A DNA stretch of 64,000 nt from an uncultured Clostridia bacterium (lineage in GTDB: Bacteria; Bacillota; Clostridia; Christensenellales; CAG-917), in assembly GCA_947589475.1 (NCBI GenBank), contig CANQBO010000010.1, forward strand, positions 3,618-67,617. The letters are read 5' to 3'. A model generated the notes under the pieces. It was not told where the DNA came from. It saw only the letters and a list, made by a program, of their open reading frames with translations, and made no database searches. Each line of letters begins with the position of its first letter. Positions within the stretch are counted from its first letter, which is position 1. A program made the position numbers and the translations under genes. Positions 23,901 through 49,375 of the stretch are shown here, piece after piece.

Positions 23901-26900
23901 GCGGTCTTTCTGCCGCCGCCGAGGTCGACGGAATCCACAAATGTAACGGTGTAATTGTCGTCATCGTTTGTGACTTCTTCCGTCCAACCGCGGTTTTTGC
24001 TGTTCAGGCCTGTCATTGTGAGCGCTTCGCCGTTGTAGGCGCGTTTTTGATCAAGCACTTTCACGGTGACTTGACGTTTTGCCACGGTGAAGGTGCCCGC
24101 TTTGCCCTTCAACTCCGTGCCGTCGTCATAAGAGCCTTCGCCGTCCCAACTGCCCGTGAAGGTCACATCGTAGTTGGCGTTGTTGCACACTGCCTTGATT
24201 GCGCACTTGCCCGCGTAGTCCGCACTGCTCGTGTCGTTGTTGAGCGTGAGTACGATCTGCAACGAGTCGCCGGGAATGATGTAGGTCTTTGCGGCAAGAT
24301 TATCTCCGCTGATGCCTGTCTTATCGGTGAAGTCGACGATATACCAACCGAGGTCTTTCTCGTTTGTGCCCTGCAGTTGGCTTAGGTTGGTGTAGGTGCG
24401 ACCGCCGAAAACGCCGCCTTGATCGTTGACGTGTACGGTGAGTTTACGCTCCGTAATGGTGTATGTGCCCGCATGGTCTTTGTTGGAGCCATCTTCGTTC
24501 CAACTGCCCGTGAAGGTCACTTCGTAATTGCCGTTGTTGTTCCAATTGCCCGTGATGGCATACTTTCCTTTGTCTCTGCCGCCATTCTTGAGCAGCTCGA
24601 TGCCGAGGTCGTCACTGCCGATGATGCCCTGATCGTGCGTATCGGTCTCGTCGTTGGTGCAAGTGATCGCGCCTTGTGTCAATGCGGCAAAGTTCTCGCC
24701 GTAGACGGAAGTCGCGTCCTTGATTTCGACGCTCAAACTACGCTTGTTGACCGTGAATTTATTGCCGCCCTCGTAGGAGAGAGCATAGTTGGTCATGATG
24801 TCCGCGTCCGCGTCATCGCGCCATGCGGCGCTTGCGGAGTAGACGTTTGCGGCTTTGGCTTCGCCCGGCAGATTGAGTTGAATTGCTTTTGCAAACAGAG
24901 CTTGATCGTCGTCAAGAACGCCATCTGCCGACCAATAATCGTTGGCAAATGTTTCAACGGTCTTGCTCTTTGTATTGAAGTCCGCCGCCCAATCGGTGCC
25001 GTTGTAGACTGCGTAAGATTGCGTAGTCACAGTGACTGTGACGGCAAGCGGCTTAATTGTGAATGTGCCGTTTTGTATGCGGTCGATGACATAGTTGTTT
25101 TTGTCGCCTTCGTTTGTGACTTCGCCGACGATCTCATAGTTGCCCGCATTCCACTTGCCGCTTTCCACAGGCTTGACGCCGAGAGAAATTCGGAAGTCCT
25201 CTTCCTCCCCTTCGACAAACGGAGGCATGCTGCCGTTCAATACGTTGGTCGCTCTCCAAGCATCCGAAAGTTCTGCCTTTTGCTTGACGGTAGGCGCAAC
25301 GCCTGTGCCTTTGTAATCGTCCTCCTGGTTGGCGACGGTTATTTCCAAACGGCGCGGATAGATGCGATAACCGTTTTCAACCGTATACTCGGTATGCTCG
25401 TCATTCCAACTGCCGCTGATTGCATGACTATTGACGTCTTCTGCCGTCACGTTGTTGTCATCGGTTTTGATGTTGTGCTGGCACTCGAACGTTACGTCGT
25501 AGTTGCCATTGTTGTAGGTGACCTCGATTGCGTACCACCCCGCGTTGAGCTGTTTTCCTTTCTCGCTGAGGTAGCTATTAGCATCCACGATTGTGACCGC
25601 GATGCCCAGATTGTCACCTTCATACACGGTGCTGCCTTTCTTCACAACCCATGCGTTGTATTGAGTGGAGTCGATGCCTTTATGTTGATTGTTGCCATAC
25701 ACGCCGCTTTGGCTGTAAATCGTGACCGTAACACTGCATTTATCTATGGTGTAAGTGCCCGCTTCGCCGTCTATTACGTCAAAGTTGTTGCCGGGGCTTA
25801 ATTTATTCTCCCAGCTGCCCGTCCAAGACATGACTTGGTAGTTGGTGTTTGCGCACGTTGCCACAATAGGATAGCTGCCCGCATTCAAGCTGATGTGCGT
25901 ATTAAGCAAAGTGATTTGCAAGTCATCGCTATTCACTATGGCGTCACCTGGTGTGTAGGTGCTTGACTCATCCAACTTGGCTTCCCACGTACCCTCGCCC
26001 TGTTCGAGTGTGACTGCTTCACCGTCGTAGGTCTTGCTTTGATCATTTATTTGCACCGTGATTCGGCGCGGTGTGATCGTCACGGCATTGATGCCGTTTT
26101 CAAAGTTGACAATGTAGCTGCCGGTCGTCGTGTATGTGCCGGTAATTGAGTATACGCCGACATCGAAGCCCGGATTCTTTGACAGCTTTACGCCGAGTAT
26201 GCTATCTTCGTCGCCCTCTGCAAGAACGCTGCCCTCTTTGAGTCCCCATGAGTACTCATTCTGTTTGGGCTCTTGTCCGTCGTACTCATGTTCAATGTGC
26301 GTTATCTCGATTATTATTGATTTGGGAGTGACCTCAAAGACGCCCGCGTGAGCCTTGTAGGACGTTTGCTCAACGCCGCTGTCTGCGCCATATTCGCCAT
26401 CTTCGCCGTCGAAGTTGCCCGCGAGAGTTATCTTGTATTGAGCGCCAACGTTGTAAGTGTACCCTGCGTCGGTCGTTCCGCTTGCAAGATAATATGTAGA
26501 CTCTGTGTCGCCCACAACGTACTTGACGACGATGGCGTACTTGCCCACGTTGAGCCACTTGTTTGTGCCCGCGCTCCAATTGTCGTTGTGAACAACGGAA
26601 AGCGAGATGCCTTTGAGCAAAGCGTCCTTATCGTCCGAAAGAATCGCGTCGCCTTGATAACTCGATACGTTGTAACTGTCCTTGATCAAGCTCTCTTTGT
26701 CCAACATCGAGCCGTTTTCTATGTCTTCTTGCTTATAAGTGCCGTATTCGGAAATGAGGTCGCCTATCGTCAACACGATCTCGCGCGGCGTGACCTCGTA
26801 TGTGCCCGCTGTCTTTTGATTGTCGCCTTCGCCGCTCCAACTGCCCACAAATTTGACATTGTAGTTTTCGTTGACGGATTCCAAATGCACGCTGCCGTCG

Positions 26901-29900
26901 TCGCTGTTGACAATGGCGTATGTGCCCACAAGCAAACTGCCGTCCTTTTGATTATAGTGACCGTCCTTTATGGCAAGATTTATGTTGAGGCTGTCGTTTT
27001 TGTAAACGATGTAGTGCTTCGATGAGGATTCCGACGCATCCCAATCGGCTTTCCAATCCCACTCCACGCCATGGTCGCTGTATTTATCGGGGTCTACAAG
27101 TCTCCAACCTACGTTTTCCACATTGCTGAGCGCAAGCGATTGACCGTATGGCGATGTTTGGTCGATGATCTCCACCACCACGTTGCGAGCGACGATCTCG
27201 AATGCGCCCAAGACCTCTCTTGTGCCCGTGAAGTTGCCGCCCGCGCTTATAGTTGCGTTTGCGTCGCCTACGTTGACGTTGTTCAGGTAACCTATGATCT
27301 TAAACAGATCGTCTGTCAACTCAACTTCGCCGCTCTCCGTGTTTGCGCCTTTCTTGAAGATGATGGTTATGTCGCCGTCCGGCGTGACGGTCACGGACGA
27401 AATTGTGTTTTCTATCGTCATGCCCGTGTAGACCTTACTCGGCATTTCCACTTTGAACTCTTTTACGCTGTTTATATCAAGAGGCAGTATTTCAAACGTG
27501 CCCGTGGAACTTTGCTCGTCGCTCCTATTGTTGAAGGCATAGTTGCCCTTTTCGAGGGTCACTTGCACGTCGTACTTGTTTGCGTCAACGGGCTTTTTCT
27601 CGCTGAACGCGGCACTGCTCCTGTTCACGCGGTATTGCAAAGAGAACTTCTCTGCAATCTCTTCGTTTGCCGTCTCATCGTTTAGAGTATCGGTCTCATT
27701 GAGCAACGAGAATGTGACGTCGGGGGTCTGCTCCTTGCCGTTGTAGGTCGTGGACGCCATTTCGTTCAATTGCACAAGAGCCGGGTCGATGATGAATACT
27801 TTGGTTTGATTGACGGTATTGTTTTCGTCCGCCTTTATCCCTTGATTGCCGAAGCGGAAGTTGATGGCGTCGTCATCGCCGTTAAGCGTAACCGTGACGT
27901 CATAGTTGCCCGCGTTCAAAGGCTTGCTGTTCACTCCAAGCAAAGCGTTGTTGTCGGGACCCGCGCTGACCGCATAAGCGACCTCGTATGCCACGGGCAA
28001 AGCGGCGTTGTTGACGTTTGCATTGCGGAAGGAAACTGCGGCCTCATCTTTCAGGTCGTACTCGGCGTGCTTATAGGTGAGATGCGCGAAGTCATTGAGG
28101 TTGACCGTCGCGGGATTTATGCGATATACGATGGTCACAACGGGCACGTCCTTTGCAACGTCGGCGTAAATGCCGACAGCCGCGCCTTCGGTAGACGCAG
28201 GAGCTTCTTCTTGCCACTTGAGCACAGCCCCGCAGTTTGTCCGCCAATAGGTTTCGTCGGTGTCCCAGCGGTAGTTGGAATTTGTGAGAGTGATGGTTAT
28301 GCTGTACAAGCCCGCATAGGTCGAATTTTTTTCATCCGCGCCGAAGTTGTACTTCGTGTCGGTTGAATACTCGCCCGTGCGCGGGATCGTGTATGCGGAA
28401 TAGAACGCATACGTCGGCGTGTGACGCATTGCGTCGTACTCGAATGTGAGCGCGTCGGGCGATTCGTGATCGAAATCGGGATTGATGGAAACGGACGCCT
28501 TTGCCACCTCCACCTGCACGATGTACAAACCCGAATAGTTGCCTTGTCCCTTCGCCGTCACGCGGTAAATGCCCGCGTCGACAATTGCTTCTTGCTCTAT
28601 CTTTTCCCAGACCGCCTCGTTGGAGTTGGCGTCGCCCGAAACGAGCTTGTAATAGTTTTGGATATAGTCCGAGCCTGCCGCAATCGAAACCATAGGCTCC
28701 ACGACCTTATTGTAAAGGCGCGTCGCCACACCGTTTTGGCGCAACCCATTGTAAGTGAGGCTAAGCGCGGAGGCGATGGTCTCTTCGATCTGCGAGTCGT
28801 TGTCAAACGTTTTGTACTCGGAAATCGTGAACTTTGTGCCTTCCTCGTTCACTTCGCCCGTGCCCAAAGACTTCGGCGAAATGTCGAAGTGCAAGGTGAG
28901 ACTTCCCGAGAAGTTGTGTACGCCCGAGATCTGCACCGTGCCGCGGATCGTATCCTCATTGCCGACGTTGATGTTGTTGCTGTGGTTGATGTTTACTTCT
29001 TCGCCCGCCTCGAGCGTTCTGCCTGTCCCGTCGTTCAAGGTCTTGACCTTTACGCCCTTTACAGGTTCCCACGCGGTCGTGACATACGGGAACTTGTCGC
29101 CGTTGTACAAAAGCTCGGTCCAAGCGTCGCTCTTTTGCGAAGCGTTAGCTATAAGTTCAAGCTCCACGTTGTCCTGCGACAGCGCAAGCGCGTTGATGCT
29201 GTATGTCAACGTCGTTTCATACGCTCCGCCCGAGAATTGAAAGTTTCCTCCCTCTTTAAGCTTGATGACGACGGAATAGGTGCCGACATGTTTGTGCCCG
29301 TCTGTCAATTCGCCGACCTTTGTGCTGTTGCCCTCTTCATGTCCCGCCCAGCCGTCATAGCCGTATTGCGCGTAATAGTTTTTGTCTGTGAAGGTGTCGT
29401 CCTCTTTAAAGACGGGCGTGCGACTTATAGGCAGTGCGCCCGTATTGTCCGCGTTTGTAAACCACACCCAAAGCGCGTGCGATTTGCCGTCGTAAGTTAT
29501 CTGCAGGTCTGCGCCCGTAAGTTGCTTCTCGGCGTCGGTCGTATATGCGGTGTCCTCTTTGTCAAACAGATAGGGGTTGAGCGTCGCCGGGGTTATCGTG
29601 AAGGTGAATTCCCTCATGATGTGGCAACCGTCATCCGCCTTGCCCGCTGTGCAAGATGGTCTCAAAGCCTCGTCTTCGGGGAAAGAACCGCCGTCTATAT
29701 CATAGTTGCAGTTGTCAAGCACAAGTTTGAGCGTGAGCGTGCCGACGTAAGTGAATATGTTGCGCAGTTTCTGAATGTCGTCCGCATGGTCTCTGACAGC
29801 CTCTGCGGTAAACGTGACTACGCCGTCATCTGCATATGTGAAGTGCATATGATTGTGCCGGTCCGTATACTCTCCTGTGCCGTCGCAGAAGGGCGTGCAT

Positions 29901-32900
29901 TCGCCAAGGTGGACAAAGTTGCCTTCTTTCTGGTCCGTCGTATAGTGGAACACGGCAACTAGTTTGCCATCTTTGTAAATATAAAGTTTGTACGGAACGT
30001 CGTTGACCTTTGCGGTACTGCGCAGGTTGAGGAAGTCGATTGCCACCGCGTCGTTGGTGTGCCTGCCTTTTGCGCCCACATTTACGCCCCTGTCCGAGCC
30101 TTTAAGCAGATCCTCTTCGGGCTGTTCCTTATAAAGATTGTAGTCAAATACGGCTGTCGTCTTCTTTTGCAAAAGACTTATCGCAAGTTGCTCTATCTCG
30201 AAAGTAGATTGATAATAACAGCCCGCGCCGAACGTCAAGCTCAAGCCGCTGAGCGTTTTAATGTTAAGCTCTTCGCTTGTTATCTCGTTGCCCGTGTTCG
30301 TCGGATTGTTTGTGGCGACCGCAAGTTTATCCGTGAGCGAGCCGAAAATCGTGCTCGGGGTCAAAGTGGTCTCTTCCTCGTTTGCGCCCGAGATCTCAAA
30401 GTTGTTTGCGGCATCTCCCAACAGCACCACGCCGACGTCGTAGGTGTCCGCATAGCTCGGCAAGCCGATGAAGCCTTTGGCTTCATCAAAGCGTGACATC
30501 TCAAATGTCTGCAGGGTGAACCTAGGCGCAAAATACACGCCCCAATCGCCGTCGGCAGGCACAGTTGCCGCATTTGCGCTGTTGACAAACCTTACATTCG
30601 GCACTTGCAAAGCGCGGTCGAAAATGACGGTGCCGAACGCCGCGACGGAGATCTTCGCCTTGTTTACGATGACCTCGATGACGTACGCGCCCGTGAAGTT
30701 GCCGTCCTCTTTCGCTTTGGCTACCACATAATACGTGCCCGCGTTGATGGCGGTCTCGTTGCTTCCGAGTCCGTCGCCGAGCCACTTGTAATCGCTTTCG
30801 CCGGTCTTCTGCCAATATGTGACGATATAATCGGAAGTACGTCTGATGAAATATTCGTCGTCCCCGCGGTTGAGCGTGAGCGTGCTCGACATATCAAATG
30901 GGCTACCCGTATATGTGAAGGGACCTATGGCTGTGTTTTCAATATCTTTGTTGTTGCCGAAATTCTCGCCTTCGCCGAGAGTGAGTACGCTCACATCTCC
31001 GCTACCTTCGACATTCGATGTGCCCAACGGACGTTTCGCTATTTCAAACGTGACCGTCACGGTGCCCGTATAATCCTGCAAGCCGTTTATGGTTATTTTC
31101 GCATTTTTGCCCGCATTCATATTGTTGCTGTATACGACGTTATAATCGGAGTCGGCGATCAGGATCTTATACGTGTTTTCTCCGTCCGTCATGACCGACT
31201 TCGCGAGGTTTGTCGCGCAGACTTCTTGAAGCGGAGTCTTTGCCAAGCCGTCGTACATGGAATCGCCGCCTCTAAGTATGCCGCCCGCCTCTTCGCCTTT
31301 TGTAAATGTGAGCTTTCTGTTGCCTTCATCGGACAGATTATATTGCGATATAGTAAAGTTGGTCGTTGTCTCCGACGCGCCGCCCGAGAATTTGAAGTTG
31401 CCGCCCTCTTTGAGGTGCGCGGTGAGAGCATATGTGCCCGCGTGGACATATTGCGTCGCGGCGTCCCCTCCCGTATACCAGCCGCTGTACGAGGACGACA
31501 GCCAAAACTCGTTTTCGCCCTGAGTATAGTCGTTTGTCTTGTCATACAAGGGTAAAACATCCGGATTCAGGCTGTTTACAAGCTTCACATCGTGCGTCTC
31601 GGAATTGAGCGATTTCTTGTGATCCGCCCCGTCGAACGTACAACTCAATGCGCCCCAATCAACGCTTATCGTTGCCTGTTCTATGACGAAATTGCGCGTG
31701 ACTTTATTGCCCGCGATGCCTGCGACGGTATAGTTGTTTAAAGCCTCTTCCGTAAAGACGATATTGACTGTATAAGTGCGCGCGTTGTATGGAGCATTAT
31801 GCCCGCCAAGTTGATCCTCTTCGTAAGTTATGCTGTAGTTTGCGCCCTCTTCATTCGGGACGGGGTTGCCGATGCTGTCCGTAACGCTTACGTTTACGGG
31901 ATGTTCCACTTTGTCGAATACGACGGACGAAGGCGTCCCGACCACCATTGTAGCTTTGTTAATGGTATAGTTGAGACTTGACGTATCCACAGCGAAGTCA
32001 TTCGCCGCGGAGCCGTTCAACTTGAAAGCTATATCGTATGTGCCCGCGTTGAGCAGTGATTCCACAATGGAACCGTCATCCGCCACGTTGGGTTTCTTGT
32101 ACGTGATTATCCACTGATAGCCGTCCGTCTCGCTCTGGGAGGGCATGACGTTTTGGGGGTTTGGAGTGCCTATGGTGAGTCCCGCGAGGTCGGGTATCTT
32201 GCGCTCTGCGCCGTTATAAGTCCAACTTGACCCGCTTGCCGTGTAGGTGTTGATCTTAAGCCCCGCTTTTTCGACCGTAAGCACATCCTCATTGCTCGTG
32301 ACGGAGTCCTTTTGGTCGGTATCGCCGTCTGCGTCGACCGTATAATTTGTGCCCGCCACAAAGCGGTAGTTGCGCGTAGTCGTAGCCACGCTGTCGTTTG
32401 ACAGCGCCAGCTTAAACGCATACTTGCCCGCGTGGAAAAGCTCGCTCTCATGGTCGTTTGGCTCAAATGAGCTGTTCGGGGTCCACTTTCCTATTGATAT
32501 ATTATAGTCGCTTGTTGTCAGCAAGTTTTTGCCGTGTCCCTCTACTACTTCCAGCGAGAGGATGTCGGTCGGGGCGTACGCGGAGTTGCGGAAAACCATA
32601 TCCTTCGCCGCCGCAGAGAGTTTCACCTCGAGTTCCGCAGGCAGAATGGCGATCACAGTGCCCTCGGGCGCTTCTTCGCCGTTGTATCCCGCGATTGCGC
32701 TACCCTCCCAAGAGGCGCTCCACGTGATCTGCGTGGCGTTTGTATCGGTGTTGAGGGTATATCCGTCGCCCGCGACAAACTCTATGTTGTTTATTGCGTC
32801 GACTCCCTGCAGTTGCACGATGAGGACGTAATAGCCCGCGTCGATCGCGGTGACCGCGCCGAAGCCCGTTTTTTCGGTATCCACGCGATACGTCACTCTA

Positions 32901-35900
32901 TAGCCGTGAATGTTCTCGTTGGCGTTGTATTCGGGTGCGGTAAATGTCTCGCCCTCTATCGTATTTTCAAGTTTAAAGTGGGCGCCAAAGAAGCCCGCCG
33001 CCTTATCCGTGCCGTCATAGTAGACCCCTTCCGTAGGCAGTGCCTCTGTCAACACCAGCTTATTTCTTGCCTTGTTGATGACAAAGTCTATCTCGGCGGA
33101 GTTGGACGAGACATTTTTCCAAGTGTTTTTGGTGCCGAAAGTCGGGTCAACGCCGCTTGTTGAATAGTCAAACGCGTCCGACTCGTCCGAATTTATAAAA
33201 TCGGTGGAAATGACAAAGTTCCTTGCGCCGTCGCCCTGCAAAGCAAAGCGATAGGTGTAGGTGCCCGCGTTGATGAGTTGCGTATATACGCCGCCGTTCA
33301 TGGTGAACTGACGCACAGACCAACCGTTTTCTGCGGGACCGGAGCCTTGCGCGCCCCAAATCGCCAAAGCCGCGTCGCTGCCGTGACCGCTGTATATCTT
33401 GACGGTGACCAAACCCGCGGCACGTTGTTGGTTGCCCTGCGGGAATTTGGCATAGTAGTCCGTTTTATTGTAGAACACATTGCGGTTGACGCTCGTGCTC
33501 AGCGCAAGTTCCGCGGGCTTTATGGTGAACTGTTGATTGAGTTTGTTTTCGTCGGCGCGGTCGGTCAAAAGCGTATCCTGCCACGCGTAATTCGTCCCGT
33601 CCGTGAAAGTGAACGGCGCGGTGTAGGTGCCCGCAAACCAATACTCTTTCGGATCGCCGTCTATTTCTATGCCTTCCGGCGGTGTTTTGTCGGAAAAATA
33701 TGTGCCGCTGCCCTCGGGGGCGCTCATTGTGTAAATGTTGGGGACGGCGTCGTCGCTATCCTTGCCCAACAACTCGTTTTTGCGTTCCGAAGTCCAGCAT
33801 TCCGATGGCAGTTCGTTTACGCCCTCGGGGATCACCACTTCGGCATGCTTTGCGATGTGCGTGCCTATCGTGTCGCTTGTAATTCGCGTGCCGAAATACA
33901 ACTCATCGCTGAACGTCGGCGAGGTGATCTGCAACTTGTTTATGGTGACTCTCGCGGCGAGGTAGCCGCTGACTTTCGATTCGCCGACATCCGATTGCAT
34001 TGCGCCGGGATTGTTGTTGTTGATGAGAGTTACTTCATAGTCCTTGTTGATTTGGGCGTCGGGGTTCTTGCTGATGAGGACATATATGTCGTATGACCCT
34101 GCCTTGACCTCATTTGGCTTAAAGTCGGGCACATAGGACGCAAGCGCTTCGTTGACGTCGTCGCCAAGCACCAAATCGCCGCCCACGGGTTGCGCCGCCG
34201 CGGTAGTGACGGAAATATGCTCATATGAAGTACTGCCGTAATACGTCCAGGTGTAGGTGTCCGTGCCCGCGATACGGGTCGGGGTAAGCATTATATTTTT
34301 CTGGTCGTCGATTTCGGGTGTGACAATACCGAGCGACGATATATCGCGGTACAGCGATACGTTCAGCGCGAGCGGCCTCGGCTCGACGGTGATTTTGCTT
34401 GTCGGAGCGCTGTCTGCGGAGGCAAATTCGTAGTCCTGATAACCGTTTGTTGCGTCGATTTTTATGCCGACGGTGAATTGCAAGTTTTGACCGACGTGCG
34501 GGGTTATATCGTCGTCGCCCTTGCCGCTTATGGACAAGGTGTAGGCGTCCTTAGGGGTCTGACCCGCGGGCAAGCCCTCGGTGGTCGTTATTGCGGAGCC
34601 GTAAAGGAAGTCCTCCACCGTGCCGAAATCATCATATCCCGCTTGTTTATCGGCATAGACATAGTCACCGTAGGTTATCGTCTGGGGTCTCGTCGTGACG
34701 GTGACCTTCTTTCTGAGCACGTCAAACTCGGAGATCTGCCACGTGGAATTTGTGCTTGTCAAGCCGTTTACCCACGTTTGGAAAGCGGCTTCGTCCATAG
34801 TCGTGTTGTCGAAAGTTTCCGACCAATCGCCCGCAAATATGACCCAAGAACCCGCATGCGTCCCCGAATTGAAATACTCGTTAAATGCGGTAGCAAATTG
34901 ACCTTCCGTGATGTCAACAACATTTTCGAGGCGATAGATCCCTGCGTCGTCCTTGCGGAACATCGTGAATGTACCCTGAGATACGCCGTCTCGCGGTTGG
35001 TTGAAATATCTGTACGGGTCGTCGCCGTACGTCCAGTGTCTGTTTTCGTAATCGGTGGTGGTGTTCAGTTTGAGGCGGAACACGCTGTACAGCACTACTT
35101 GGTCGTTTTTGTCAAGTTGGTCGCGTGTGATAGAAAAGTCTTGTCCTATCGGGATATAGCTGTCTTTGTCGGGTTCTCTCACCCATACTTTGCCGCCGAC
35201 GGTGCTATCCATCGTCCAACCGATAAACTCAGCAGAGGGGTGCTCAAAAGCCGGCGCGGGCAAATTGACCGTGCTGACAAGCCCCGTTTTGTCCGTAGGA
35301 GTGACTTCGGGCAATGAGCCGGTCATTGTTTGCTCATACTCACGCTTGTTGACTTTAAGCAACGCCCTGCCCGTATCGTCATACACCATATCGCCGGGAA
35401 TGTTCTCGCCGGTTATCGTCTCTGTGAGACCGTGTTGGAAATGCACCGAAGCGTATATATCTATGGATATTGTAAATTGAGTTATAAACCTTTTTACTCC
35501 GTCTTCGCCGCCAGCATCGTAGTTTGAACTGCCGTTGTTTTTTATTGCATCAGCCAAAGCGTCGTTTTCATAGAATATTTGGAAAGAATATGTACCGCTG
35601 TCCGGCGCCTCGTCCCAAAACAGCATATAAAAGTCTTGCGCCGCGCCCTTATCTTTATTCTTATCCTGCGGGTCTCCGACAGTATCTTTCGGCAACAGTG
35701 TGACCTCCGTCCCATCTGCTTGTATCAATTTGCCGTAGTCATCTTGTTTGATTTTTACGGGTCCGTCCATTTGATTGAGCAATTCAACGTTTGATATTCT
35801 GTTGAGTTGGTTCATCATTCTGACGCCGAAGCGCAAGTTCGCGCCATAGCCGAAAAATGTGCCTTGAGAGTCGTACTTTTCAACAGGGATAGCAAACACG

Positions 35901-38620
35901 GGGTCGTCGGTCGGCATATCATATGCCATATTGCCCTTGTTGGAGGCGTGTTTCAGCACGGGCAAATATTTTTCGTAGTCTGTGGCTGTAGCGCTGCTCT
36001 CTTGCGGCAAACCTATTTCATACACATATGGGCTGTAATCGTCCATATAGTGGACTGTTGGCGTGGTGGTACCCCTTTTTATGCCCGCCGCGCCCGCTAC
36101 GGATGAGGAGTGCTTGCCTGTGAATTTCAAATATTTGCCGTTTTCACGCGAAAACACGTTGTCCGACTCTTGCGTGCGGTATTGCAAATAGTATATATCC
36201 GTCAAATTGGGCGCTTTGGCGTCAAGATATGCCGTACCGAAAACCGTCTTGCAGTATCCGAAATAAACCAACGAGGTGTTGAGAATTGTGCACCCGCGGA
36301 AAGCATAAAGCCCAACTTGCTCCAACCCTGCGGGGAATTGCAAATATGTCTCGATTGTTCCCGGATAAAATGACCAGTCTCCTATTTTTTTCAACGTACT
36401 CGGGAATATAAGTCCGTCCGTTTGCTTCATGGCGTTGCCGTCTGCCGTCAGAGTCGTAGTACCTTTTACTGTTCCGGTGACCAACATGTATCCGGTCTCT
36501 TCCACCCCCTCGGGAAATTTCAAAGTTTTTAAAGTAGTACCAAGTCCGGAAGATCCGGAGATCACAATGGTTCTGTCGCCTTTATTGTGTCCGTTGGGTT
36601 TACCGATGATTTTTACATCGTAGGTCTTACTTCCGGTGACAAGTTTACTCGGAAATGTTAAAGATTGACTCCCTGCATTATAATTCCAATCGGAACCTTC
36701 TTCGGTACCACTTGTATTGTTTTTTAAGTTTGCCTCATTTGTGCGCACGAGCTGAACTGTACCGTGCGCTCCATTATCGACAGCCTCTGTCAATACTATA
36801 CAGTCCCAAATGTTATTAAATCTGACAGCCGCTTGAAGGGTCGTGCTTCCGAAAGTTATTTCCGACCCCGGGTTGATACAACCAAATGGATACGTTTTGG
36901 TCTCCCAAACGGAATATTCCTCGGGGCGGTCATGCAAGTTGCCTATGTTGCGCGGGTCGCCCGTCAAATTTTTGAAAACTATATCGGGAGTTGATGTCGC
37001 CGTGACAAACGCCGATTGAGAAATCTTGAATGTTTGATCGTCAAACGCTCCCCAAATGTTTACGGTAGTTATTGCATCGCATCCATTGAAAGCCCAAAAT
37101 CCTATCTGTGAACATTGATCGGGAATATTTATCACCCCGGTACCTGTGCCTGTATGATTTGTCGTCGTAATGGAATTTAAGCGCGTACAACCTTCAAACG
37201 ACATTGCAGCGATTTTTTCGATAGTATCGGGAAGTCCGCTTATAGAAGTTATATAATTGGACTGCTTGAAACATGATGTTGGCAATTGCGTCATGCCTAC
37301 ATCTCCCCACCCTGTAGCAAAAGTAACTGTTGTAATACTCGTATTATTGTTTAGTGCACCGGGAGCTAATTTTGTAAAACTGTGTCCGCCTATTGAAATC
37401 GGCACAGTGACACTTGCAGAAGCCCCATTATAAGGTCCCAAGATGCCTCTGCGACTATTGTAATACCATCTTGTATTACTGTCATATCCATATCCTGTCG
37501 CACCGGTATTGTACGTGACATTTGTTCTGGAGAACCCCCAGGGATAACATTCGCATGTGCCCGGAGCGCCTTTGCAATATACAGATACATTCAGTCCATT
37601 GCCATCGTGGTCGTTGGTTGTATAATCACCATAGATTCTGTTTGCTCCTTCATTCCAGACCACCTCAAAAGGTTGCTCTATCACATTGCCCAAAGAAGCG
37701 GGGATAACAAAATAGCTCACGCCATCTATGCTTTCAAGATTTATTTCAACACGGTGGAAAGCGCTGTCGCCTATCTCATAAATGCCTGTACCGTCGGGAT
37801 AAAAAGTCGTTTCGCCAACTGGGTCAAAACTGTCAAGCCCGTTTTTTTCGCGTTCATCATCGGGTAGTTCAAATTCTTTCAACTGATAATCATAGATGAA
37901 GCATTTTGAGCCAATAGTTTTCAAATGGATACAAGCCTGCAAGCTCTCATTCTCACCTACTTGCATACTCGTATAAGTTTCTTCACTCGCAACTGCTTTG
38001 TGATAGCTTTTCACTCGCGTCAAACTCTTGCAAGTGGCAAAACATCCTTCACCGAGAGAGGTTATGGACTCGGGAAGTGTGATTTGCACAAGGTCGCTCG
38101 AGGCAAAACAAAAGTCGCCAATATCTTGTATGGCAACACCCATATCCTTGCAATCTGCGGGAAGCCTGTCATAAGCGGCGGCGCGCTCGGATTGCAATTC
38201 ATCCGGATATGCCTTGTCTCCGCCTCCGCCTTCTTCAAGCGTGTTGAATTTTATATAATTTATCGAAGCGGCTCCTCCGAAAACACCCGCCTCTATGCCG
38301 AGTATGGGATAACCGTTATATTGGGCGGGAATGACGGCAGGATTGTCTGCCGTGCCGAAAGTACCGTCACCGTGATATTGATAGCTTGTGATGATATAGC
38401 CCTGCACGCCGTTGACATATTGCAGGTCGCTGTAATACAAATATCGAGAAAGAGGCGTCTCTTCTGTTGCCGCGTACACGTCGGCGGCGGGTGGGGATAT
38501 GACTGCCGCGCATATAGACACAAAAAGGAATATTGCAAAAATGATAAGCAAGCTCTTCTGCAGTTTGGATATCGAAAGGTTCTTCAATTCTTGTCCCTCC
38601 ATTTTGTCAACATCTCGCAC
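14966..38620 (-). CDS. Giant cell-surface repeat protein (7,884 aa): signal anchor, BspA-type LRRs, MBG-like (YGX-type) repeat array, C-terminal TM anchor
   Basis: Uninterrupted 23,655-nt ORF in the track. GTG start at 38620; alternative in-frame ATG at 38602. N-terminal hydrophobic LLIIFAIFLFVSICAAVI followed by an AxA-like site. LRR_5/BspA-like repeats (IGDFCFASSDLVQITLPESITSLGEGCFATCKSLTRV, LKTIGSKCFIY) at ~36460..38320. One Listeria/Bacteroides-type repeat (AEFIGWTMD). About 50-55 units of the form T(V/I)xxRx(I/L)TVx(V/I)xDQxxxYG(D/E), each ending in NY-(V/I)-F. The C-terminus LYVCLFASQFLIGLFALLFVGRRKKEKNK is a TM helix plus a basic tail. Confidence 0.9.
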   Translation of the reverse strand: MRDVDKMEGQELKNLSISKLQKSLLIIFAIFLFVSICAAVISPPAADVYAATEETPLSRYLYYSDLQYVNGVQGYIITSYQYHGDGTFGTADNPAVIPAQYNGYPILGIEAGVFGGAASINYIKFNTLEEGGGGDKAYPDELQSERAAAYDRLPADCKDMGVAIQDIGDFCFASSDLVQITLPESITSLGEGCFATCKSLTRVKSYHKAVASEETYTSMQVGENESLQACIHLKTIGSKCFIYDYQLKEFELPDDEREKNGLDSFDPVGETTFYPDGTGIYEIGDSAFHRVEINLESIDGVSYFVIPASLGNVIEQPFEVVWNEGANRIYGDYTTNDHDGNGLNVSVYCKGAPGTCECYPWGFSRTNVTYNTGATGYGYDSNTRWYYNSRRGILGPYNGASASVTVPISIGGHSFTKLAPGALNNNTSITTVTFATGWGDVGMTQLPTSCFKQSNYITSISGLPDTIEKIAAMSFEGCTRLNSITTTNHTGTGTGVINIPDQCSQIGFWAFNGCDAITTVNIWGAFDDQTFKISQSAFVTATSTPDIVFKNLTGDPRNIGNLHDRPEEYSVWETKTYPFGCINPGSEITFGSTTLQAAVRFNNIWDCIVLTEAVDNGAHGTVQLVRTNEANLKNNTSGTEEGSDWNYNAGSQSLTFPSKLVTGSKTYDVKIIGKPNGHNKGDRTIVISGSSGLGTTLKTLKFPEGVEETGYMLVTGTVKGTTTLTADGNAMKQTDGLIFPSTLKKIGDWSFYPGTIETYLQFPAGLEQVGLYAFRGCTILNTSLVYFGYCKTVFGTAYLDAKAPNLTDIYYLQYRTQESDNVFSRENGKYLKFTGKHSSSVAGAAGIKRGTTTPTVHYMDDYSPYVYEIGLPQESSATATDYEKYLPVLKHASNKGNMAYDMPTDDPVFAIPVEKYDSQGTFFGYGANLRFGVRMMNQLNRISNVELLNQMDGPVKIKQDDYGKLIQADGTEVTLLPKDTVGDPQDKNKDKGAAQDFYMLFWDEAPDSGTYSFQIFYENDALADAIKNNGSSNYDAGGEDGVKRFITQFTISIDIYASVHFQHGLTETITGENIPGDMVYDDTGRALLKVNKREYEQTMTGSLPEVTPTDKTGLVSTVNLPAPAFEHPSAEFIGWTMDSTVGGKVWVREPDKDSYIPIGQDFSITRDQLDKNDQVVLYSVFRLKLNTTTDYENRHWTYGDDPYRYFNQPRDGVSQGTFTMFRKDDAGIYRLENVVDITEGQFATAFNEYFNSGTHAGSWVIFAGDWSETFDNTTMDEAAFQTWVNGLTSTNSTWQISEFDVLRKKVTVTTRPQTITYGDYVYADKQAGYDDFGTVEDFLYGSAITTTEGLPAGQTPKDAYTLSISGKGDDDITPHVGQNLQFTVGIKIDATNGYQDYEFASADSAPTSKITVEPRPLALNVSLYRDISSLGIVTPEIDDQKNIMLTPTRIAGTDTYTWTYYGSTSYEHISVTTAAAQPVGGDLVLGDDVNEALASYVPDFKPNEVKAGSYDIYVLISKNPDAQINKDYEVTLINNNNPGAMQSDVGESKVSGYLAARVTINKLQITSPTFSDELYFGTRITSDTIGTHIAKHAEVVIPEGVNELPSECWTSERKNELLGKDSDDAVPNIYTMSAPEGSGTYFSDKTPPEGIEIDGDPKEYWFAGTYTAPFTFTDGTNYAWQDTLLTDRADENKLNQQFTIKPAELALSTSVNRNVFYNKTDYYAKFPQGNQQRAAGLVTVKIYSGHGSDAALAIWGAQGSGPAENGWSVRQFTMNGGVYTQLINAGTYTYRFALQGDGARNFVISTDFINSDESDAFDYSTSGVDPTFGTKNTWKNVSSNSAEIDFVINKARNKLVLTEALPTEGVYYDGTDKAAGFFGAHFKLENTIEGETFTAPEYNANENIHGYRVTYRVDTEKTGFGAVTAIDAGYYVLIVQLQGVDAINNIEFVAGDGYTLNTDTNATQITWSASWEGSAIAGYNGEEAPEGTVIAILPAELEVKLSAAAKDMVFRNSAYAPTDILSLEVVEGHGKNLLTTSDYNISIGKWTPNSSFEPNDHESELFHAGKYAFKLALSNDSVATTTRNYRFVAGTNYTVDADGDTDQKDSVTSNEDVLTVEKAGLKINTYTASGSSWTYNGAERKIPDLAGLTIGTPNPQNVMPSQSETDGYQWIITYKKPNVADDGSIVESLLNAGTYDIAFKLNGSAANDFAVDTSSLNYTINKATMVVGTPSSVVFDKVEHPVNVSVTDSIGNPVPNEEGANYSITYEEDQLGGHNAPYNARTYTVNIVFTEEALNNYTVAGIAGNKVTRNFVIEQATISVDWGALSCTFDGADHKKSLNSETHDVKLVNSLNPDVLPLYDKTNDYTQGENEFWLSSSYSGWYTGGDAATQYVHAGTYALTAHLKEGGNFKFSGGASETTTNFTISQYNLSDEGNRKLTFTKGEEAGGILRGGDSMYDGLAKTPLQEVCATNLAKSVMTDGENTYKILIADSDYNVVYSNNMNAGKNAKITINGLQDYTGTVTVTFEIAKRPLGTSNVEGSGDVSVLTLGEGENFGNNKDIENTAIGPFTYTGSPFDMSSTLTLNRGDDEYFIRRTSDYIVTYWQKTGESDYKWLGDGLGSNETAINAGTYYVVAKAKEDGNFTGAYVIEVIVNKAKISVAAFGTVIFDRALQVPNVRFVNSANAATVPADGDWGVYFAPRFTLQTFEMSRFDEAKGFIGLPSYADTYDVGVVLLGDAANNFEISGANEEETTLTPSTIFGSLTDKLAVATNNPTNTGNEITSEELNIKTLSGLSLTFGAGCYYQSTFEIEQLAISLLQKKTTAVFDYNLYKEQPEEDLLKGSDRGVNVGAKGRHTNDAVAIDFLNLRSTAKVNDVPYKLYIYKDGKLVAVFHYTTDQKEGNFVHLGECTPFCDGTGEYTDRHNHMHFTYADDGVVTFTAEAVRDHADDIQKLRNIFTYVGTLTLKLVLDNCNYDIDGGSFPEDEALRPSCTAGKADDGCHIMREFTFTITPATLNPYLFDKEDTAYTTDAEKQLTGADLQITYDGKSHALWVWFTNADNTGALPISRTPVFKEDDTFTDKNYYAQYGYDGWAGHEEGNSTKVGELTDGHKHVGTYSVVIKLKEGGNFQFSGGAYETTLTYSINALALSQDNVELELIANASQKSDAWTELLYNGDKFPYVTTAWEPVKGVKVKTLNDGTGRTLEAGEEVNINHSNNINVGNEDTIRGTVQISGVHNFSGSLTLHFDISPKSLGTGEVNEEGTKFTISEYKTFDNDSQIEETIASALSLTYNGLRQNGVATRLYNKVVEPMVSIAAGSDYIQNYYKLVSGDANSNEAVWEKIEQEAIVDAGIYRVTAKGQGNYSGLYIVQVEVAKASVSINPDFDHESPDALTFEYDAMRHTPTYAFYSAYTIPRTGEYSTDTKYNFGADEKNSTYAGLYSITITLTNSNYRWDTDETYWRTNCGAVLKWQEEAPASTEGAAVGIYADVAKDVPVVTIVYRINPATVNLNDFAHLTYKHAEYDLKDEAAVSFRNANVNNAALPVAYEVAYAVSAGPDNNALLGVNSKPLNAGNYDVTVTLNGDDDAINFRFGNQGIKADENNTVNQTKVFIIDPALVQLNEMASTTYNGKEQTPDVTFSLLNETDTLNDETANEEIAEKFSLQYRVNRSSAAFSEKKPVDANKYDVQVTLEKGNYAFNNRSDEQSSTGTFEILPLDINSVKEFKVEMPSKVYTGMTIENTISSVTVTPDGDITIIFKKGANTESGEVELTDDLFKIIGYLNNVNVGDANATISAGGNFTGTREVLGAFEIVARNVVVEIIDQTSPYGQSLALSNVENVGWRLVDPDKYSDHGVEWDWKADWDASESSSKHYIVYKNDSLNINLAIKDGHYNQKDGSLLVGTYAIVNSDDGSVHLESVNENYNVKFVGSWSGEGDNQKTAGTYEVTPREIVLTIGDLISEYGTYKQEDIENGSMLDKESLIKDSYNVSSYQGDAILSDDKDALLKGISLSVVHNDNWSAGTNKWLNVGKYAIVVKYVVGDTESTYYLASGTTDAGYTYNVGAQYKITLAGNFDGEDGEYGADSGVEQTSYKAHAGVFEVTPKSIIIEITHIEHEYDGQEPKQNEYSWGLKEGSVLAEGDEDSILGVKLSKNPGFDVGVYSITGTYTTTGSYIVNFENGINAVTITPRRITVQINDQSKTYDGEAVTLEQGEGTWEAKLDESSTYTPGDAIVNSDDLQITLLNTHISLNAGSYPIVATCANTNYQVMSWTGSWENKLSPGNNFDVIDGEAGTYTIDKCSVTVTIYSQSGVYGNNQHKGIDSTQYNAWVVKKGSTVYEGDNLGIAVTIVDANSYLSEKGKQLNAGWYAIEVTYNNGNYDVTFECQHNIKTDDNNVTAEDVNSHAISGSWNDEHTEYTVENGYRIYPRRLEITVANQEDDYKGTGVAPTVKQKAELSDAWRATNVLNGSMPPFVEGEEEDFRISLGVKPVESGKWNAGNYEIVGEVTNEGDKNNYVIDRIQNGTFTIKPLAVTVTVTTQSYAVYNGTDWAADFNTKSKTVETFANDYWSADGVLDDDQALFAKAIQLNLPGEAKAANVYSASAAWRDDADADIMTNYALSYEGGNKFTVNKRSLSVEIKDATSVYGENFAALTQGAITCTNDETDTHDQGIIGSDDLGIELLKNGGRDKGKYAITGNWNNNGNYEVTFTGSWNEDGSNKDHAGTYTITERKLTVHVNDQGGVFGGRTYTNLSQLQGTNEKDLGWYIVDFTDKTGISGDNLAAKTYIIPGDSLQIVLTLNNDTSSADYAGKCAIKAVCNNANYDVTFTGSWDGEGSYDDGTELKGKAGTFTVAKRQVTVKVLDQKRAYNGEALTMTGLNSKNRGWTEEVTNDDDNYTVTFVDSVDLGGGRKTAPEIKVSLSVEGAKNVGKYLIHIRITRDGTVIFNSSETELSDTVKLNEAGQLVVTTNEYEITVVGTQTRTDVASDDAKQVKVCGEYEITQKEVTLTIEDKMSTYGEDRATLTWRDLAGGIVSADSETIKEAITLSIQNMAENLRGETYLVAGTYHITAEVASNETSDNYKFSFVGTTGTEGYGIYTVGKRGIGLRVNDQSVVYGTDAKFAYTIVSLPGTTGAVILSCDEGLFEGVIKYEVLNQQLSNSSHLNVGTYPIWISLNTDESKAGDVKVITDNYEITFTGLWSGDAVTGPTTPGAAGTLTVTAKLITVTGITSESNVALTSEYGDAVPDDWSYSSDGAFEGDIVEVAYSLNASETANVGTYPVTVALARADESNDNANYTMAMARTVEYNITARRVKFVEPSVKEIVYGNTREYPEIVVERDGKEGEWNKYASGGDINDVKVDITVVGETLSTSGFLRVKMQSGEVIGYDITLSLSGVNASNYQITNASATFEQKLKVNKRPVTVTIDDQTSVYAEKEKPLTYKVEGEDAGEGIALAADGTGLAKGDDRSLLSITLTRQGLSEGQSDVDVYAITGTFNCPDYEVVFSGNWDKDGNTDGDSANDNHAGVYKITERNIRIEIYNQSAIYGESISVTSIQGTDWDVLDAAIVDGVQYYGLKPGDSLGIELQIVGKYDTDKYSVRPRGFYTIDFDEAKVNANYKVTLVREDMPTDEVAQRDYADDYQAIYSSDPAVKEFMWGGQYPISEKLRSLGSGMFFVTVREVNVHINNQNGIYGDEHKLVQTIEGDAPAYRIGLPAGSKATGDAFVDGLKVEFELVTTAYGSEDKSGQLSYAGEYPIYGKGMTATRKGVSLESTDEILRNYRIGFSGAWTGEEEYPSGSTYKNRVGVFTVNRRQVNVTVNDSTVTYGALDHYKNLEATDKRLDIFNQSSYTASATNSSGAAFVNGDLDVLALKLYINYHASDLSGGQALKVGSYMINVDYRSKSDNEDQQKIIDSYVITPQIGAKLIVERANITISILNGAATDKGTTYGDDLSEAEVTWNSVDNTNMYTVAGGFVTGDKLDFTLTSSTIALVKEGIYPAAGNYAIYATWQAESEIGDNANYNTPTWTGAFTKGIDPKDDHYAGTAGIYTVAKKGIEVTIDDAEAEYGESTDIEFSYKLPEGWAVAGDDESDLGIKLFTDAKAGSPVSATGYAIKGNATGANYDVTFKGSYIDDASGTLNIYPRKIVVVIRPQSSVYGTNPMASYETTKWFVVRDGKAVTSDTQGNESVWTSVFGEAKEKSMGELSITLTKGITYVDGSTWSNGNGQFVGKYAITGRCDNNNYDVVFAKWTTDDAEDYRDIVENTWGEYEITPLDVTITIKDREGVYGSILTDGVTQLRYNAKLVNTLNTAWTYGEASGTFTVGHEQYLAFYLRGDAEKGNIYAEVGEHRIEGVWAQGITESDADHYGIKKNYNVKFVDQAGEDSYGAFTVTPATIQQNNRTAEDGETFTGTLWNQTQLYRGEAVSYSLKVDAGYFFFAGDLSFGADDKGTVTYDAATVKYTDLKKDNQFVVEGEVSEDKLNITNYGVWTVDVTIKKANHKDATFTLTLTVVQADLTVTLKDGVKFEKTYGDYLADGQAAKGGARTFAQLQEDLKAWLFDTKVISKIDGAENIADDLESVIKTLLKITGDDAITVSIFTTTENTSSGGYLNAGNYIITFVVNGNIKIKFADTYSVVSVKQKELNMKWKPADGDLPNIQENYKDNASLFTYRYDGEDHNVTATPIDTLEGDLVANFGMQRYLIGKDKGETPQYELRLVGEYRVAVIVDSNPNTVGNRDISNYAIRSVDLYVTIVAVDITVLIKDRQCEYGEQDIDPNTEGAWEIISGAEALPAGEDLRIVLSLETFTSERRQSGTSRISGRSDNENYKVKFVGSFGETLEGRNDGNGGTYTVKQREIVVNVHDITVAYGTYTSEDLKDLNFVDLGDAAFTTSRPDDPAGYAVMSQNSAITIFPDDMEILAPSIKLDPASAKYTSTGYLKANAAGYKLLCGYNDKFNYHITFVLDNGDGYNVLDKYAKLIVDQKGLTVNIQTRSAVYGDERPTMPMNYTVAGFTSADEEWFNVNRDTERSFLQFTVRDATTGVEINKDVKFDPVGLYIIILEQDTSASHEIGSNYDITVMGEWNSEEYYERLNGKAGIYTVTPRTLTIMVHSASGEYGDTDVAERFMTDIISTQFAPGDTADSIKKMITYDTTDVFEEGRTKGIGVYKVNAVMNSANYTLDGTITANYEVLPREIDLKALALTSEYGDRHKDLVESKGYSVGWTATRSNGKTGNGIAYQDADEIVNAIKVSTDTSSTADAGEGYRVYIDTKTIALDKNYHVNAIIDGTLTIERRRITVRVRPQTGEYGEEHVLADEYDKDWTAERTNKTEFSDENVVVLPRDIYDITLGCPVDRTSPVGEYQISATFDNKNYIVAFVDGKYTVRPRDIFVRIENAAGEYGDNVSALTWSASRVGGNAIVNGDVLDITLRAAMEDDRFVDTTTFIGTYPIIATQSNNPNYNITFTGDYEGTLPDIRIGNAAGKYEVTKRRIIMTFDGESEYGDEIDPHSASYRADGKEGPAIVNGDDLGYTFDWIDDPYENKVNGYPAVGSYRLKVSKPTSPTAAQANYEVSDNVAEYSVYKVVPRKVTIRVKDGGRTYGDEFVEPNDDIMSWLEIRRTTLGRGGDPILNEDIKFFSLTVIDGDEATLTDGIPYFAGRYNYELIYTNDNPNYELSVVYGNYVVSPKPITVHVDDKTTNYGEDLLELTHSEIEGVLDGDELGFALSVLWGEGQDDLTWHNAGVYRIEASLTNANYALTVEGSLGDAGAYTILKVRNSWLKEYSVERLQQGYEPDPELLPEAEWGEVIIKYYYDKECTQELDRDIKDARMGTYYVKVTVLDTINWDGLESFYTVEVYNDFLNIGETDITLYVCLFASQFLIGLFALLFVGRRKKEKNK
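15200..34715 (-). repeat. Array of diverged MBG-like repeat units inside the giant ORF (boundaries approximate)
   Basis: First clear unit VTVTTRPQTITYGDY is encoded at ~34715. Last unit VVSPKPITVHVDDKTTNYGED is at ~15600. Units are diverged at the DNA level; I saw no long identical stretches. Confidence 0.7.
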
Positions 38621-38683
38621 CTCGTTTTTTGGGCGAAGGTTGTCTGTGAAACCGAATCAGACTTATTTCGACAATTTTTCATA

Positions 38684-38711
38684 AATATACACCCCCCCCC
38701 CGCATTGTCAA
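38684..38711 (-). promoter_or_regulatory. Candidate sigma-A promoter of the giant gene, with a G10 tract in the spacer
   Basis: - strand reads TTGACA (38711..38706), then atgc-GGGGGGGGGG-tg (16 nt), then TATATT (38689..38684). It lies 64-82 nt upstream of the candidate start codons. Confidence 0.55.
38692..38701. repeat. Homopolymer C10 (+) / G10 (-), tract 1
   Basis: Ten consecutive C counted directly at 38692..38701. Confidence 0.95.
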
Positions 38712-38867
38712 GCATTTTGAACAAATTTTCGACATTTGGGGCGAAATTTTTGATTTTTTTATTTTTACTTATGCTGTTTACCATATTTTCCCCACACAGT
38801 TTATGCACAACGGTGTCGATTTTTGCCATATATGCCCTTTGGGACGGCATTTTTCGACTGAAAGTCA

Positions 38868-38877
38868 CCCCCCCCCC
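38868..38877. repeat. Homopolymer C10 (+) / G10 (-), tract 2
   Basis: Ten consecutive C counted directly. Same flanks as tract 1 (caCCCCCCCCCCg), 176 nt away. Confidence 0.95.
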
Positions 38878-39028
38878 GTATTTTTCGGACAAACTGCCCA
38901 TACGCCCTTGAAAATCTCGATTTTTTGCCCCGATTTTGCCTTGCGATCGCCCCGCAAGCGAATTCCCGCATTTTTGACGGCGTTCCCCTCTCCCGCGAGC
39001 GCACGCGCGCGCACTCGCCGCGCCCGAC

Positions 39029-39075
39029 CACAAGATGTGCCGCAACCGACCTCCCCTCTCGCGGCACATCTTGTG
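39029..39075. repeat. Perfect 15-bp inverted repeat with a 17-nt loop
   Basis: CACAAGATGTGCCGC (39029..39043) and GCGGCACATCTTGTG (39061..39075). No adjacent T-run. Confidence 0.8.
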
Positions 39076-39460
39076 CCCCGACCCCTATTTCCCCACTATT
39101 TGCCGTCTTTGCTCGTCGCCGTCGAAACCTTGAATATACCCCGCCCCATTGCTTTTTCAAAATGTAAAATTCGAGACGCTCAAACCGCCTCGGCTTTTCC
39201 GCTCTTTCAACCTCGGAATTTTCAAACTCGGCATCTTAAGGACCGCCCGCCCCCTCAAAATTTCCGCACTCGGCTATTCCTCTTCGGGCACAAAATTTTG
39301 CAACGGAAAATATTCTCTCCTCTCAGAGTATAAAATTTTTACGTTATGCAAGGAAGTTTGCATATGCAATTAGAATATCAAAAACGCAAGATCGGGCTTG
39401 ATACATTGCCGAAATTTGGCGTTTTTTGAAATAGACCAAAAATGCCAAAAATCAACAAAA

Positions 39461-39508
39461 CTACAATATGTTGTGTTTCGCAAAAATGTTTCACACACTA
39501 TTTTGCGT
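39461..39508 (+). promoter_or_regulatory. Tandem NrdR boxes
   Basis: CTACAATATGTTGTGT (39461..39476) and ACACACTATTTTGCGT (39493..39508) each match 13 of 16 positions of the NrdR consensus acaCwAtATaTwGtgt. Their starts are 32 bp apart, the typical tandem spacing, directly upstream of the nrdD -35. Confidence 0.6.
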
Positions 39509-39515
39509 TTTTCCC

Positions 39516-39543
39516 TTGACATCTGCGGCGAGGGTGCTACAAT
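39516..39543 (+). promoter_or_regulatory. Sigma-A promoter of nrdD
   Basis: TTGACA (39516..39521), 16 nt, TGcTACAAT (extended -10, hexamer 39538..39543), 33 nt upstream of the ATG. Confidence 0.7.
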
Positions 39544-43146: not shown

Positions 43147-43209
43147 CCCAAACATAAAACGGAACGCATCGCGTTCCGTTTTATGTTTGGGTTCTTTTTT
43201 CTTTTTTTT
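43147..43209 (+). terminator. Strong terminator: 21-bp perfect inverted repeat plus a T-rich tail
   Basis: CCCAAACATAAAACGGAACGC-ATC-GCGTTCCGTTTTATGTTTGGG (43147..43191), followed by TTCTTTTTTCTTTTTTTT. Confidence 0.7.
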
Positions 43210-49336: not shown

Positions 49337-49375
49337 AAAAAAGAGCCGCTTCCCTTTGGGTAGCGGTTTTTTTTT
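49337..49375. terminator. Bidirectional terminator
   Basis: AAAAAA-GA-GCCGCT-tccctttgggt-AGCGGT-TTTTTTTT. Confidence 0.7.

Follow-up and report, generated by a model that had tools for sequence, protein, structure and literature searches.

Does a run of ten guanines lying between the two hexamers of a promoter act as a switch for the giant surface-protein gene found downstream? This question is raised by a locus of an uncultured member of the Christensenellales (Clostridia), which we analysed in a window of 64,000 nucleotides (the whole stretch of DNA under study). Christensenellales are widespread, poorly cultured gut commensals and form a heritable, health-associated clade, but to our knowledge almost nothing is known on the regulation of their cell surface. 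Repeat-based contingency loci have mostly been studied in Gram-negative pathogens and in mollicutes, and invertases are known as a source of surface variation in Bacteroides and C. difficile. Here, we propose with moderate confidence that the giant gene is placed under a slipped-strand promoter-spacer phase-variation switch of the porA/tp0126 type. This reading is suggested by the architecture of the promoter, by the run-length statistics, by the nature of the gene controlled and by an equivalent tract of variable length in a related lineage. The features on which the argument is built are collected in Table 1.

Table 1. Features of the giant-gene locus and of the equivalent promoter in a related lineage; positions are those of the window unless a locus is named.
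Feature	Position	Strand	Description	Basis
P1, candidate proximal promoter of the giant gene	38684..38711	-	11/12 match to the sigma-70-type consensus	sequence reading
Tract 1	38692..38701	-	G10 homopolymer, 10 of the 16 P1 spacer positions; proposed slippage site	sequence reading, run count
Tract 2	38868..38877	-	G10 homopolymer, 157 nt 5′ of the P1 -35	run count
Giant surface-protein gene	14966..38587	-	7,873 aa, 23.6 kb	ORF list, translation, Pfam
RBS and probable start of the giant gene	38585..38600	-	GGAGG at 38600..38596 and probable TTG start at 38587..38585	sequence; ENA gene calls
P2, distal promoter-like site	39133..39160	-	TTGAAA-aagcaatGGGGcGGGG-TATATT, 16-nt spacer	10/12 match
NrdR-box-like palindromes CTACAATATGTTGTGT and ACACACTATTTTGCGT	39461-39476, 39493-39508	+	just 5′ of the nrdD promoter, 32 nt start to start	
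nrdD promoter	39516-39543	+	TTGACA-16-TACAAT with TG extension	
Lipoprotein-gene promoter, Christensenellaceae MGBC129327	L056 8806-8836		TTGACT-ttttgct-G12-TACAAT	

First, the giant gene fits the profile of a contingency-type target, since its product is secreted-looking, carries surface domains and is lineage-specific. A signal-peptide-like segment (KNLSISKLQKSLLIIFAIFLFVSICAAVISPPAADVYA, read by eye) is found at the N-terminus, BspA-type LRR_5 repeats lie near it (Pfam LRR_5, 2.9e-26) and MBG_2 repeats occupy the C-terminal half (Pfam MBG_2, 5e-42). The protein ends with a hydrophobic helix followed by a RRKKEKNK tail. Altogether, this succession of elements predicts a giant anchored surface protein that is LRR adhesin-like. 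Its length needs to be slightly corrected. The 7,884 aa given in the preliminary description correspond to a count from a GTG at 38620, whereas the ENA gene calls end at the equivalent of position 38587 and give the length retained in Table 1. As a GGAGG motif lies upstream of the TTG found at this position, with a gap of 8 nt, this TTG is most likely the start codon.

The giant gene is divergent from nrdD, which encodes an anaerobic ribonucleotide reductase with ATP-cone and glutaredoxin domains and is followed by a thioredoxin-reductase-like gene. NrdD served as the query for related genomes in the GTDB and in metagenomes; the relatives found did not exceed 88-89% identity and in none of them was nrdD accompanied by the giant gene. 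With 88% NrdD identity, an uncultured Christensenella sp. MAG of a mouse gut catalogue comes closest, and the other top matches are MAGs of Christensenellaceae or unclassified Clostridia. The three members examined of the NrdD 90% cluster likewise had neither the giant gene beside nrdD nor the tracts. When the first 600 aa of the giant protein were compared with 5.8 billion proteins, no close homologue was returned; the matches were generic LRR proteins sharing 22-30% identity over most of the query, with short local matches at about 50%, and the search gave no orthologous promoters to compare with P1. The closest relatives (88-90+% NrdD identity) lack the giant gene, which is thus lineage-specific, as is its control region, and which appears to have been inserted in this lineage.

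Some features of the surroundings can be mentioned here. Compared with window positions 14966-39575, the nrdD neighbourhood is not conserved in the four related loci L003, L180, L182 and L183 (88-90+% NrdD identity), and upstream of nrdD L180 has luxS and a hybrid kinase, L182 a GtrA-like gene and L183 a Vut_1 gene. On the other side, a 1,233-aa ORF located 3′ of the giant gene is found just before the end of the ENA contig NODE_80, at about window position 11109. Just 5′ of the nrdD promoter, the two palindromes of Table 1 resemble the NrdR box.

On the minus strand, the sequence located 5′ of the giant ORF reads aaaatgcTTGACAatgcGGGGGGGGGGtgTATATTtatgaaaaattg. It contains a TTGACA -35 hexamer (38711..38706) and a TATATT -10 hexamer (38689..38684), separated by the 16-nt spacer atgcGGGGGGGGGGtg (38705..38690). 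The preliminary description had reported this arrangement of TTGACA, a 16-nt spacer holding G10 and TATATT; we recovered the same anatomy on re-reading, and a consensus scan scores it 11/12. P1 is the sole minus-strand site scoring at least 9/12 in the approximately 450 nt 5′ of the giant ORF, and the scan counted six promoter-like sites in the region vs 1.8 ± 1.4 in shuffled sequences. Its -10 is located 97 nt from the TTG start, there is no better promoter candidate nearby, and taking transcription to start about 7 nt past the -10 gives a 5′ UTR of about 90 nt. A known RNA element or a structured leader was also considered and rejected: no Rfam match with E < 0.1 was obtained, and the 5′ UTR shows no better folding than shuffled sequences (z = 0.0). 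That P1 would be the active promoter of the giant gene is suggested by its position, with a 5′ UTR of about 90 nt and no competing site over 450 nt, and by analogy with a homologue family in which transcript-like contigs begin just past a promoter placed at a matching distance.

The position of the G run within the spacer is what gives it potential consequences. We surveyed the spacers of promoter-like matches of at least 10/12 in the window and in the related loci L003, L056, L086, L180, L182 and L183, and counted 27 at 16 nt and 33 at 17 nt, vs about 12-14 at 13-15 nt. The three 12/12 promoters of the window all have a 17-nt spacer. As the counts peak at 16 and 17 nt, slips of one base would move P1 between optimal, usable and background spacing, and the spacer arithmetic initially proposed for this promoter is indeed reasonable. 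According to this survey, the working range would have G10 at its short end and its optimum at G11, with G9 down at the background level; this agrees with what has been published on porA and on tp0126 of T. pallidum (PMC7864442). The promoter of nrdD also uses a 16-nt spacer, so that G10 may simply be an ON promoter.

The mechanism that we propose is the following. Tract 1 would be the variable part of a sigma-70-type promoter spacer that drives the giant gene. During replication, slipped-strand mispairing would add or remove G residues in the tract and thereby shift the distance between the -35 and the -10. With G10 the spacing would be usable (16 nt) and with G11 optimal (17 nt), and tracts of G9 or shorter, or of G13 or longer, would place the hexamers outside the range of RNA polymerase. 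A clonal population would then always hold cells with high, low and no transcription of a costly, exposed protein. A change in the length of tract 2 would probably contribute another level of control, in shifting the phase of upstream regulatory DNA with respect to P1.

Such a mechanism presupposes that the tract is real and that it is not a trivial outcome of base composition. In the window, which has 52% G+C, the counts of G and C runs drop about 4.5- to 5-fold per extra base and end at 5 nt; the only G/C runs longer than this are two C10 on the plus strand, which are tracts 1 and 2. The window also has T9, A8 and T8 runs, at 49367-49375, 10324-10331 and 43202-43209. Extrapolating this decay, 0.022 runs of at least 10 nt are expected in the window vs 2 observed. 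A single 957-bp intergenic region holds the two tracts at a distance of 176 bp, and each is a run of G on the strand of the giant gene. Elsewhere, about 1.6 Mb of loci centred on nrdD in related Clostridia gave a single further G/C run reaching 10 nt, the G12 of L056 described below, and outside the two lineages the other runs of at least 8 nt amount to one G8 and one G9 in unremarkable contexts. Tract 1 is thus more than chance. Two-colour Illumina chemistry is known to yield poly-G artefacts and the lengths of homopolymers are prone to error, which could suggest that the tracts reflect a sequencing or assembly error, or else a chance homopolymer. We consider this extremely improbable. Indeed, the pairing of two such runs 176 bp apart contrasts with the 0.022 expected per window by chance, and independent assemblies of different ENA samples show both tracts away from the contig ends and between the same flanks, so that they are not assembly artefacts. 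Tract 1 is identical in ERZ27249211 and ERZ27249206, where it is found mid-contig.

We then have to ask whether the tracts vary in length. Three near-clonal assemblies, all consensus sequences, cover the tract region: the window, ERZ27249211 (L001/L083) and ERZ27249206 (L002/L085). ERZ27249211 differs from the window by 0 substitutions and 1 gap over 10,921 aligned bp, and ERZ27249206 by 1 substitution and 0 gaps over 6,491 bp. The sole gap sits in tract 2: ERZ27249211 has G11, the window and ERZ27249206 have G10, in 22-25x Illumina/SPAdes assemblies where long G runs are error-prone. The sole SNP of ERZ27249206 is an A to C change on the plus strand at 38890, 13 nt past the C run of tract 2; changes of this type beside a C run can be induced by homopolymers. 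All the differences seen across the 6.5-10.9 kb compared therefore cluster at one homopolymer. This is what a hypermutable site predicts, but it is also where Illumina consensus errors are likeliest, and the clustering is suggestive only.

Tract 1 is G10 in all three of these assemblies, in which minority lengths are invisible because they are consensus sequences, and P1 as a whole is identical in the window, L001 and L002. The assemblies being almost clonal (0-1 substitutions in 6-11 kb), this constancy says little either way. Look-ups for more assemblies of the strain returned the same contigs, and an exact-flank scan of the JGI metagenomes for tract-1 variants (CATAAATATACA-N4-20-GCATTGTCAAGC) gave 0 matches, the species being absent from that collection. 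The constancy of tract 1 nonetheless brings in a different explanation, in which P1 is real but the G run does no more than determine promoter strength or DNA stiffness as a G+C-rich spacer of fixed length, this length being effectively stable in a mismatch-repair-proficient host. The 16-nt spacing would suit such a fixed element, as it is a normal working spacer here, judging by the nrdD promoter. Against it, a functionless G10 is very improbable both to arise and to persist in a window where no other run exceeds 5 nt, its sister tract 2 differs between near-identical assemblies, and the equivalent spacer tract of a related lineage is found in three lengths. We therefore regard a static spacer as unlikely, although we give it some weight, and prefer the slippage switch, in which tract 1 slips at a useful rate and its length changes alter expression; both of these properties are inferred. 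The phase-switch claim of the preliminary description is partly supported: the promoter anatomy, the secreted and anchored nature of the target and the variable equivalent tract in a related lineage all speak for it, and the G10 shared by the three near-clonal assemblies is hardly informative.

This equivalent tract belongs to the promoter of a lipoprotein gene in Christensenellaceae MGBC129327 (L056). The promoter region reads ggtaTTGACTttttgctGGGGGGGGGGGGTACAATcttg and is located about 150 nt 5′ of a gene lying just 3′ of nrdD, whose 546-aa product starts with MKKKLLTVLLAVVMVFGVFGLTACGG, a lipoprotein signal. In relatives (L166-L169), we aligned the upstream regions of contigs that encode homologues of this lipoprotein with 98%, 87% and 83% identity. 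In four assemblies, the tract is G12, G11, G14 and G11, giving spacers of 19, 18, 21 and 18 nt, with a coverage of 3-6x that makes the individual tract lengths uncertain. The hexamers and flanks are invariant across these four aligned assemblies. In a fifth contig, the first bases already belong to the G run, and TATACT comes after it; another one starts 23 nt before the -35. Such breaks are expected where a variable tract interrupts assembly. Three lengths between identical flanks, together with contig breaks, fit a truly unstable tract.

More distant homologues of the lipoprotein (about 43% identity) have a plain TTGACA-17-TATAAT at the equivalent position, with no G run. An ancestral G tract in the wider lipoprotein family was rejected on this basis, and the tract is rather a lineage-specific insertion into an ordinary promoter, which is the expected picture for a contingency locus. 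As a separate observation, many of the contigs carrying these distant homologues (L171-L179) are about 1.9 kb long, have very high coverage and hold the lipoprotein gene alone. They begin just past TTGACA-17-TATAAT, and poly-A or Illumina adapter remnants are present in L171, L172, L174 and L177. These contigs resemble assembled transcripts, or else contaminated contig ends, that were submitted as metagenome assemblies.

The lipoprotein promoter and P1 have much in common. Both come from the same clade and combine a near-consensus -35, a short lead-in ending in GC(T) and a G run abutting the -10, with a 5′ UTR of about 100-150 nt and a secreted product. They differ in that the lipoprotein gene is unrelated to the giant gene and has a single tract, and in that its spacers of 18-21 nt are at or past the long edge of the range, whereas the P1 spacer is 16 nt.

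The second G tract of the intergenic region, which the preliminary description had missed, is more difficult to interpret. Tract 2 lies 281 nt 5′ of the TTG start (105 nt for tract 1) and about 256 nt 3′ of the -10 of P2. The two tracts share the flanks AATRC-G10-TG, AATGC or AATAC being found before the run and TG after it. We considered that tract 2 could be a decayed duplicate of P1, which was not supported, since local alignment against shuffled sequences retains AATRC-G10-TG alone. No sigma-70-like promoter encloses tract 2 on either strand; the best minus-strand match is 6/12 and the plus strand offers a weak 8/12, by eye.

Tract 2 being outside any promoter and yet the tract that varies, both G runs could act mainly through the helical phase or the distance of upstream protein sites relative to RNA polymerase, and not through the -35/-10 spacing. 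Candidate sites are provided by repeated GTC(G/C)AAAAT(G/A)C-like motifs that flank both tracts. Indeed, copies of CGAAAAAT flank tract 2 at about 31 nt from each other, similar motifs abut the P1 -35, and GTCGAAAW occurs three times within 210 bp around both G tracts, always on the minus strand (38665-38672, 38726-38733 and 38851-38858). A precedent exists in H. pylori sabA, where a T-tract next to the promoter is described as tuning expression by its length via DNA geometry (PMC4081817). However, the motif is abundant genome-wide, with 26 GTCGAAAW in the window vs 8.9 ± 2.8 expected, and the local copies may be compositional; this excess could be a compositional bias or could mark the site of a regulator. 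In addition, tract 1 is unambiguously within a spacer, where length must matter. Finally, the sabA tract adjoins the -35 and tract 2 is 157 nt away, so that a sabA-type rheostat in the strict sense fails for tract 2, the likeness being limited to a homopolymer outside the core promoter, which makes sabA a possible model. We judge it distinctly unlikely that phasing is the main mode of action of the two runs. Combined with the spacer switch at tract 1, which remains our preferred reading, our guess is that tract 2 might adjust how upstream sites are phased with respect to P1, in a loose parallel with the T-tract of sabA.

The distal site P2 may be a locked relative of P1. Its spacer includes GGGGCGGGG, an interrupted G run, and the two sites were grouped as the repeat family D1 with 75% identity; past the hexamers, their likeness is not significant (alignment vs shuffles, z = 1.9). 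Two other repeats were noticed in the region. A very G+C-rich stretch that separates P2 from tract 2 contains an inverted repeat of 15 bp without mismatch (CACAAGATGTGCCGC / GCGGCACATCTTGTG, 17-nt loop, 39029-39075); as no T run follows, it is not a terminator, and a role in protein binding or as a leader hairpin is possible. The long intergenic region also has, at 39185-39340, degenerate direct repeats spaced by about 40 nt, for instance CCTCGGAATTTTCAAACTCGGC / CCTCAAAATTTCCGCACTCGGC and TCCTCTTCGGGCACAAAATTTT / TCCTCTCAGAGTATAAAATTTT.

Two other types of switch were considered and rejected. A coding-frame switch of the Campylobacter or Neisseria type is not compatible with tracts located 105 and 281 nt 5′ of the start, and the giant ORF is devoid of any G/C run longer than 5 nt. 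The ORFs overlapping the tracts look spurious; rich in Arg and Pro, they lack a Pfam match and are absent from the ENA gene calls. As for an inverton, the inverted repeats of the region are 72-82% complementary, A/T-rich and do not bracket P1, and a single orientation is found in all assemblies.

If the giant gene is indeed controlled by slippage in its promoter, single strains would keep sub-populations with and without a very costly exposed protein, with a bearing on immunity, phage attack and colonisation, and classical repeat-based contingency loci would be shown to operate in gut Clostridia. More tentatively, poly-G spacer tracts could be a recurrent contingency system for surface proteins in Christensenellales, the two-tract version described here giving several levels of adhesin; this generalisation is possible but somewhat doubtful. 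If it were true, simple-repeat phase variation, and not invertases, would be a main source of surface heterogeneity in the clade. As G tracts are easily scored in metagenomic reads, the prediction can be tested on existing data. Such tracts would also account for some of the contig breaks and length disagreements of MAGs.

Slippage switches of this type are well known, and the clade is one with no described example in the literature that we found: our search returned no report of repeat-mediated phase variation in Christensenellaceae, nor of promoter homopolymer switches in Clostridia. In porA, slippage shifts the spacer around the 17-nt optimum and thereby changes the transcription level of a surface protein. 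Promoter tracts also place surface structures under slipped-strand control, with graded or on/off expression, in B. pertussis (fim2/fim3, poly-C), H. influenzae (hifA/hifB, TA repeats) and M. hyorhinis (vlp, poly-A). At fim, the tracts act jointly with the activator BvgA; at hif, the repeat is shared by two divergent promoters. These systems resemble P1 by a repeat tract in or beside the promoter spacer and by a surface product, and differ by the repeat unit or base. Unlike hif, the divergent nrdD has here a separate promoter, 800 nt away.

The closest known counterparts have poly-G between the -35 and the -10. This is the case for N. meningitidis porA, with an optimum at 17 nt, and for the OmpW homologue tp0126 of T. 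pallidum, which is best transcribed at 17-nt spacing (PMC7864442). Poly-G tracts of T. pallidum vary by +/- 1-2 G within isolates (PMC7864442). The tracts of tprE/G/J and tprL lie outside the spacer, unlike tract 1. P1 shares with tp0126 a poly-G in the spacer, but the latter belongs to a spirochaete, and the Treponema cases rest on experimental transcription start sites and reporters, whereas P1 was read from sequence. With porA, P1 shares a G run between the hexamers of a sigma-70-type promoter and a surface-protein gene. At porA, slippage changes the spacer length and the transcription level; at P1, both changes are predicted. Finally, porA encodes a porin of a proteobacterial pathogen, while P1 would drive a 23.6-kb LRR/MBG gene in a Gram-positive-type gut commensal of the Clostridia (Christensenellales), with a second tract upstream.
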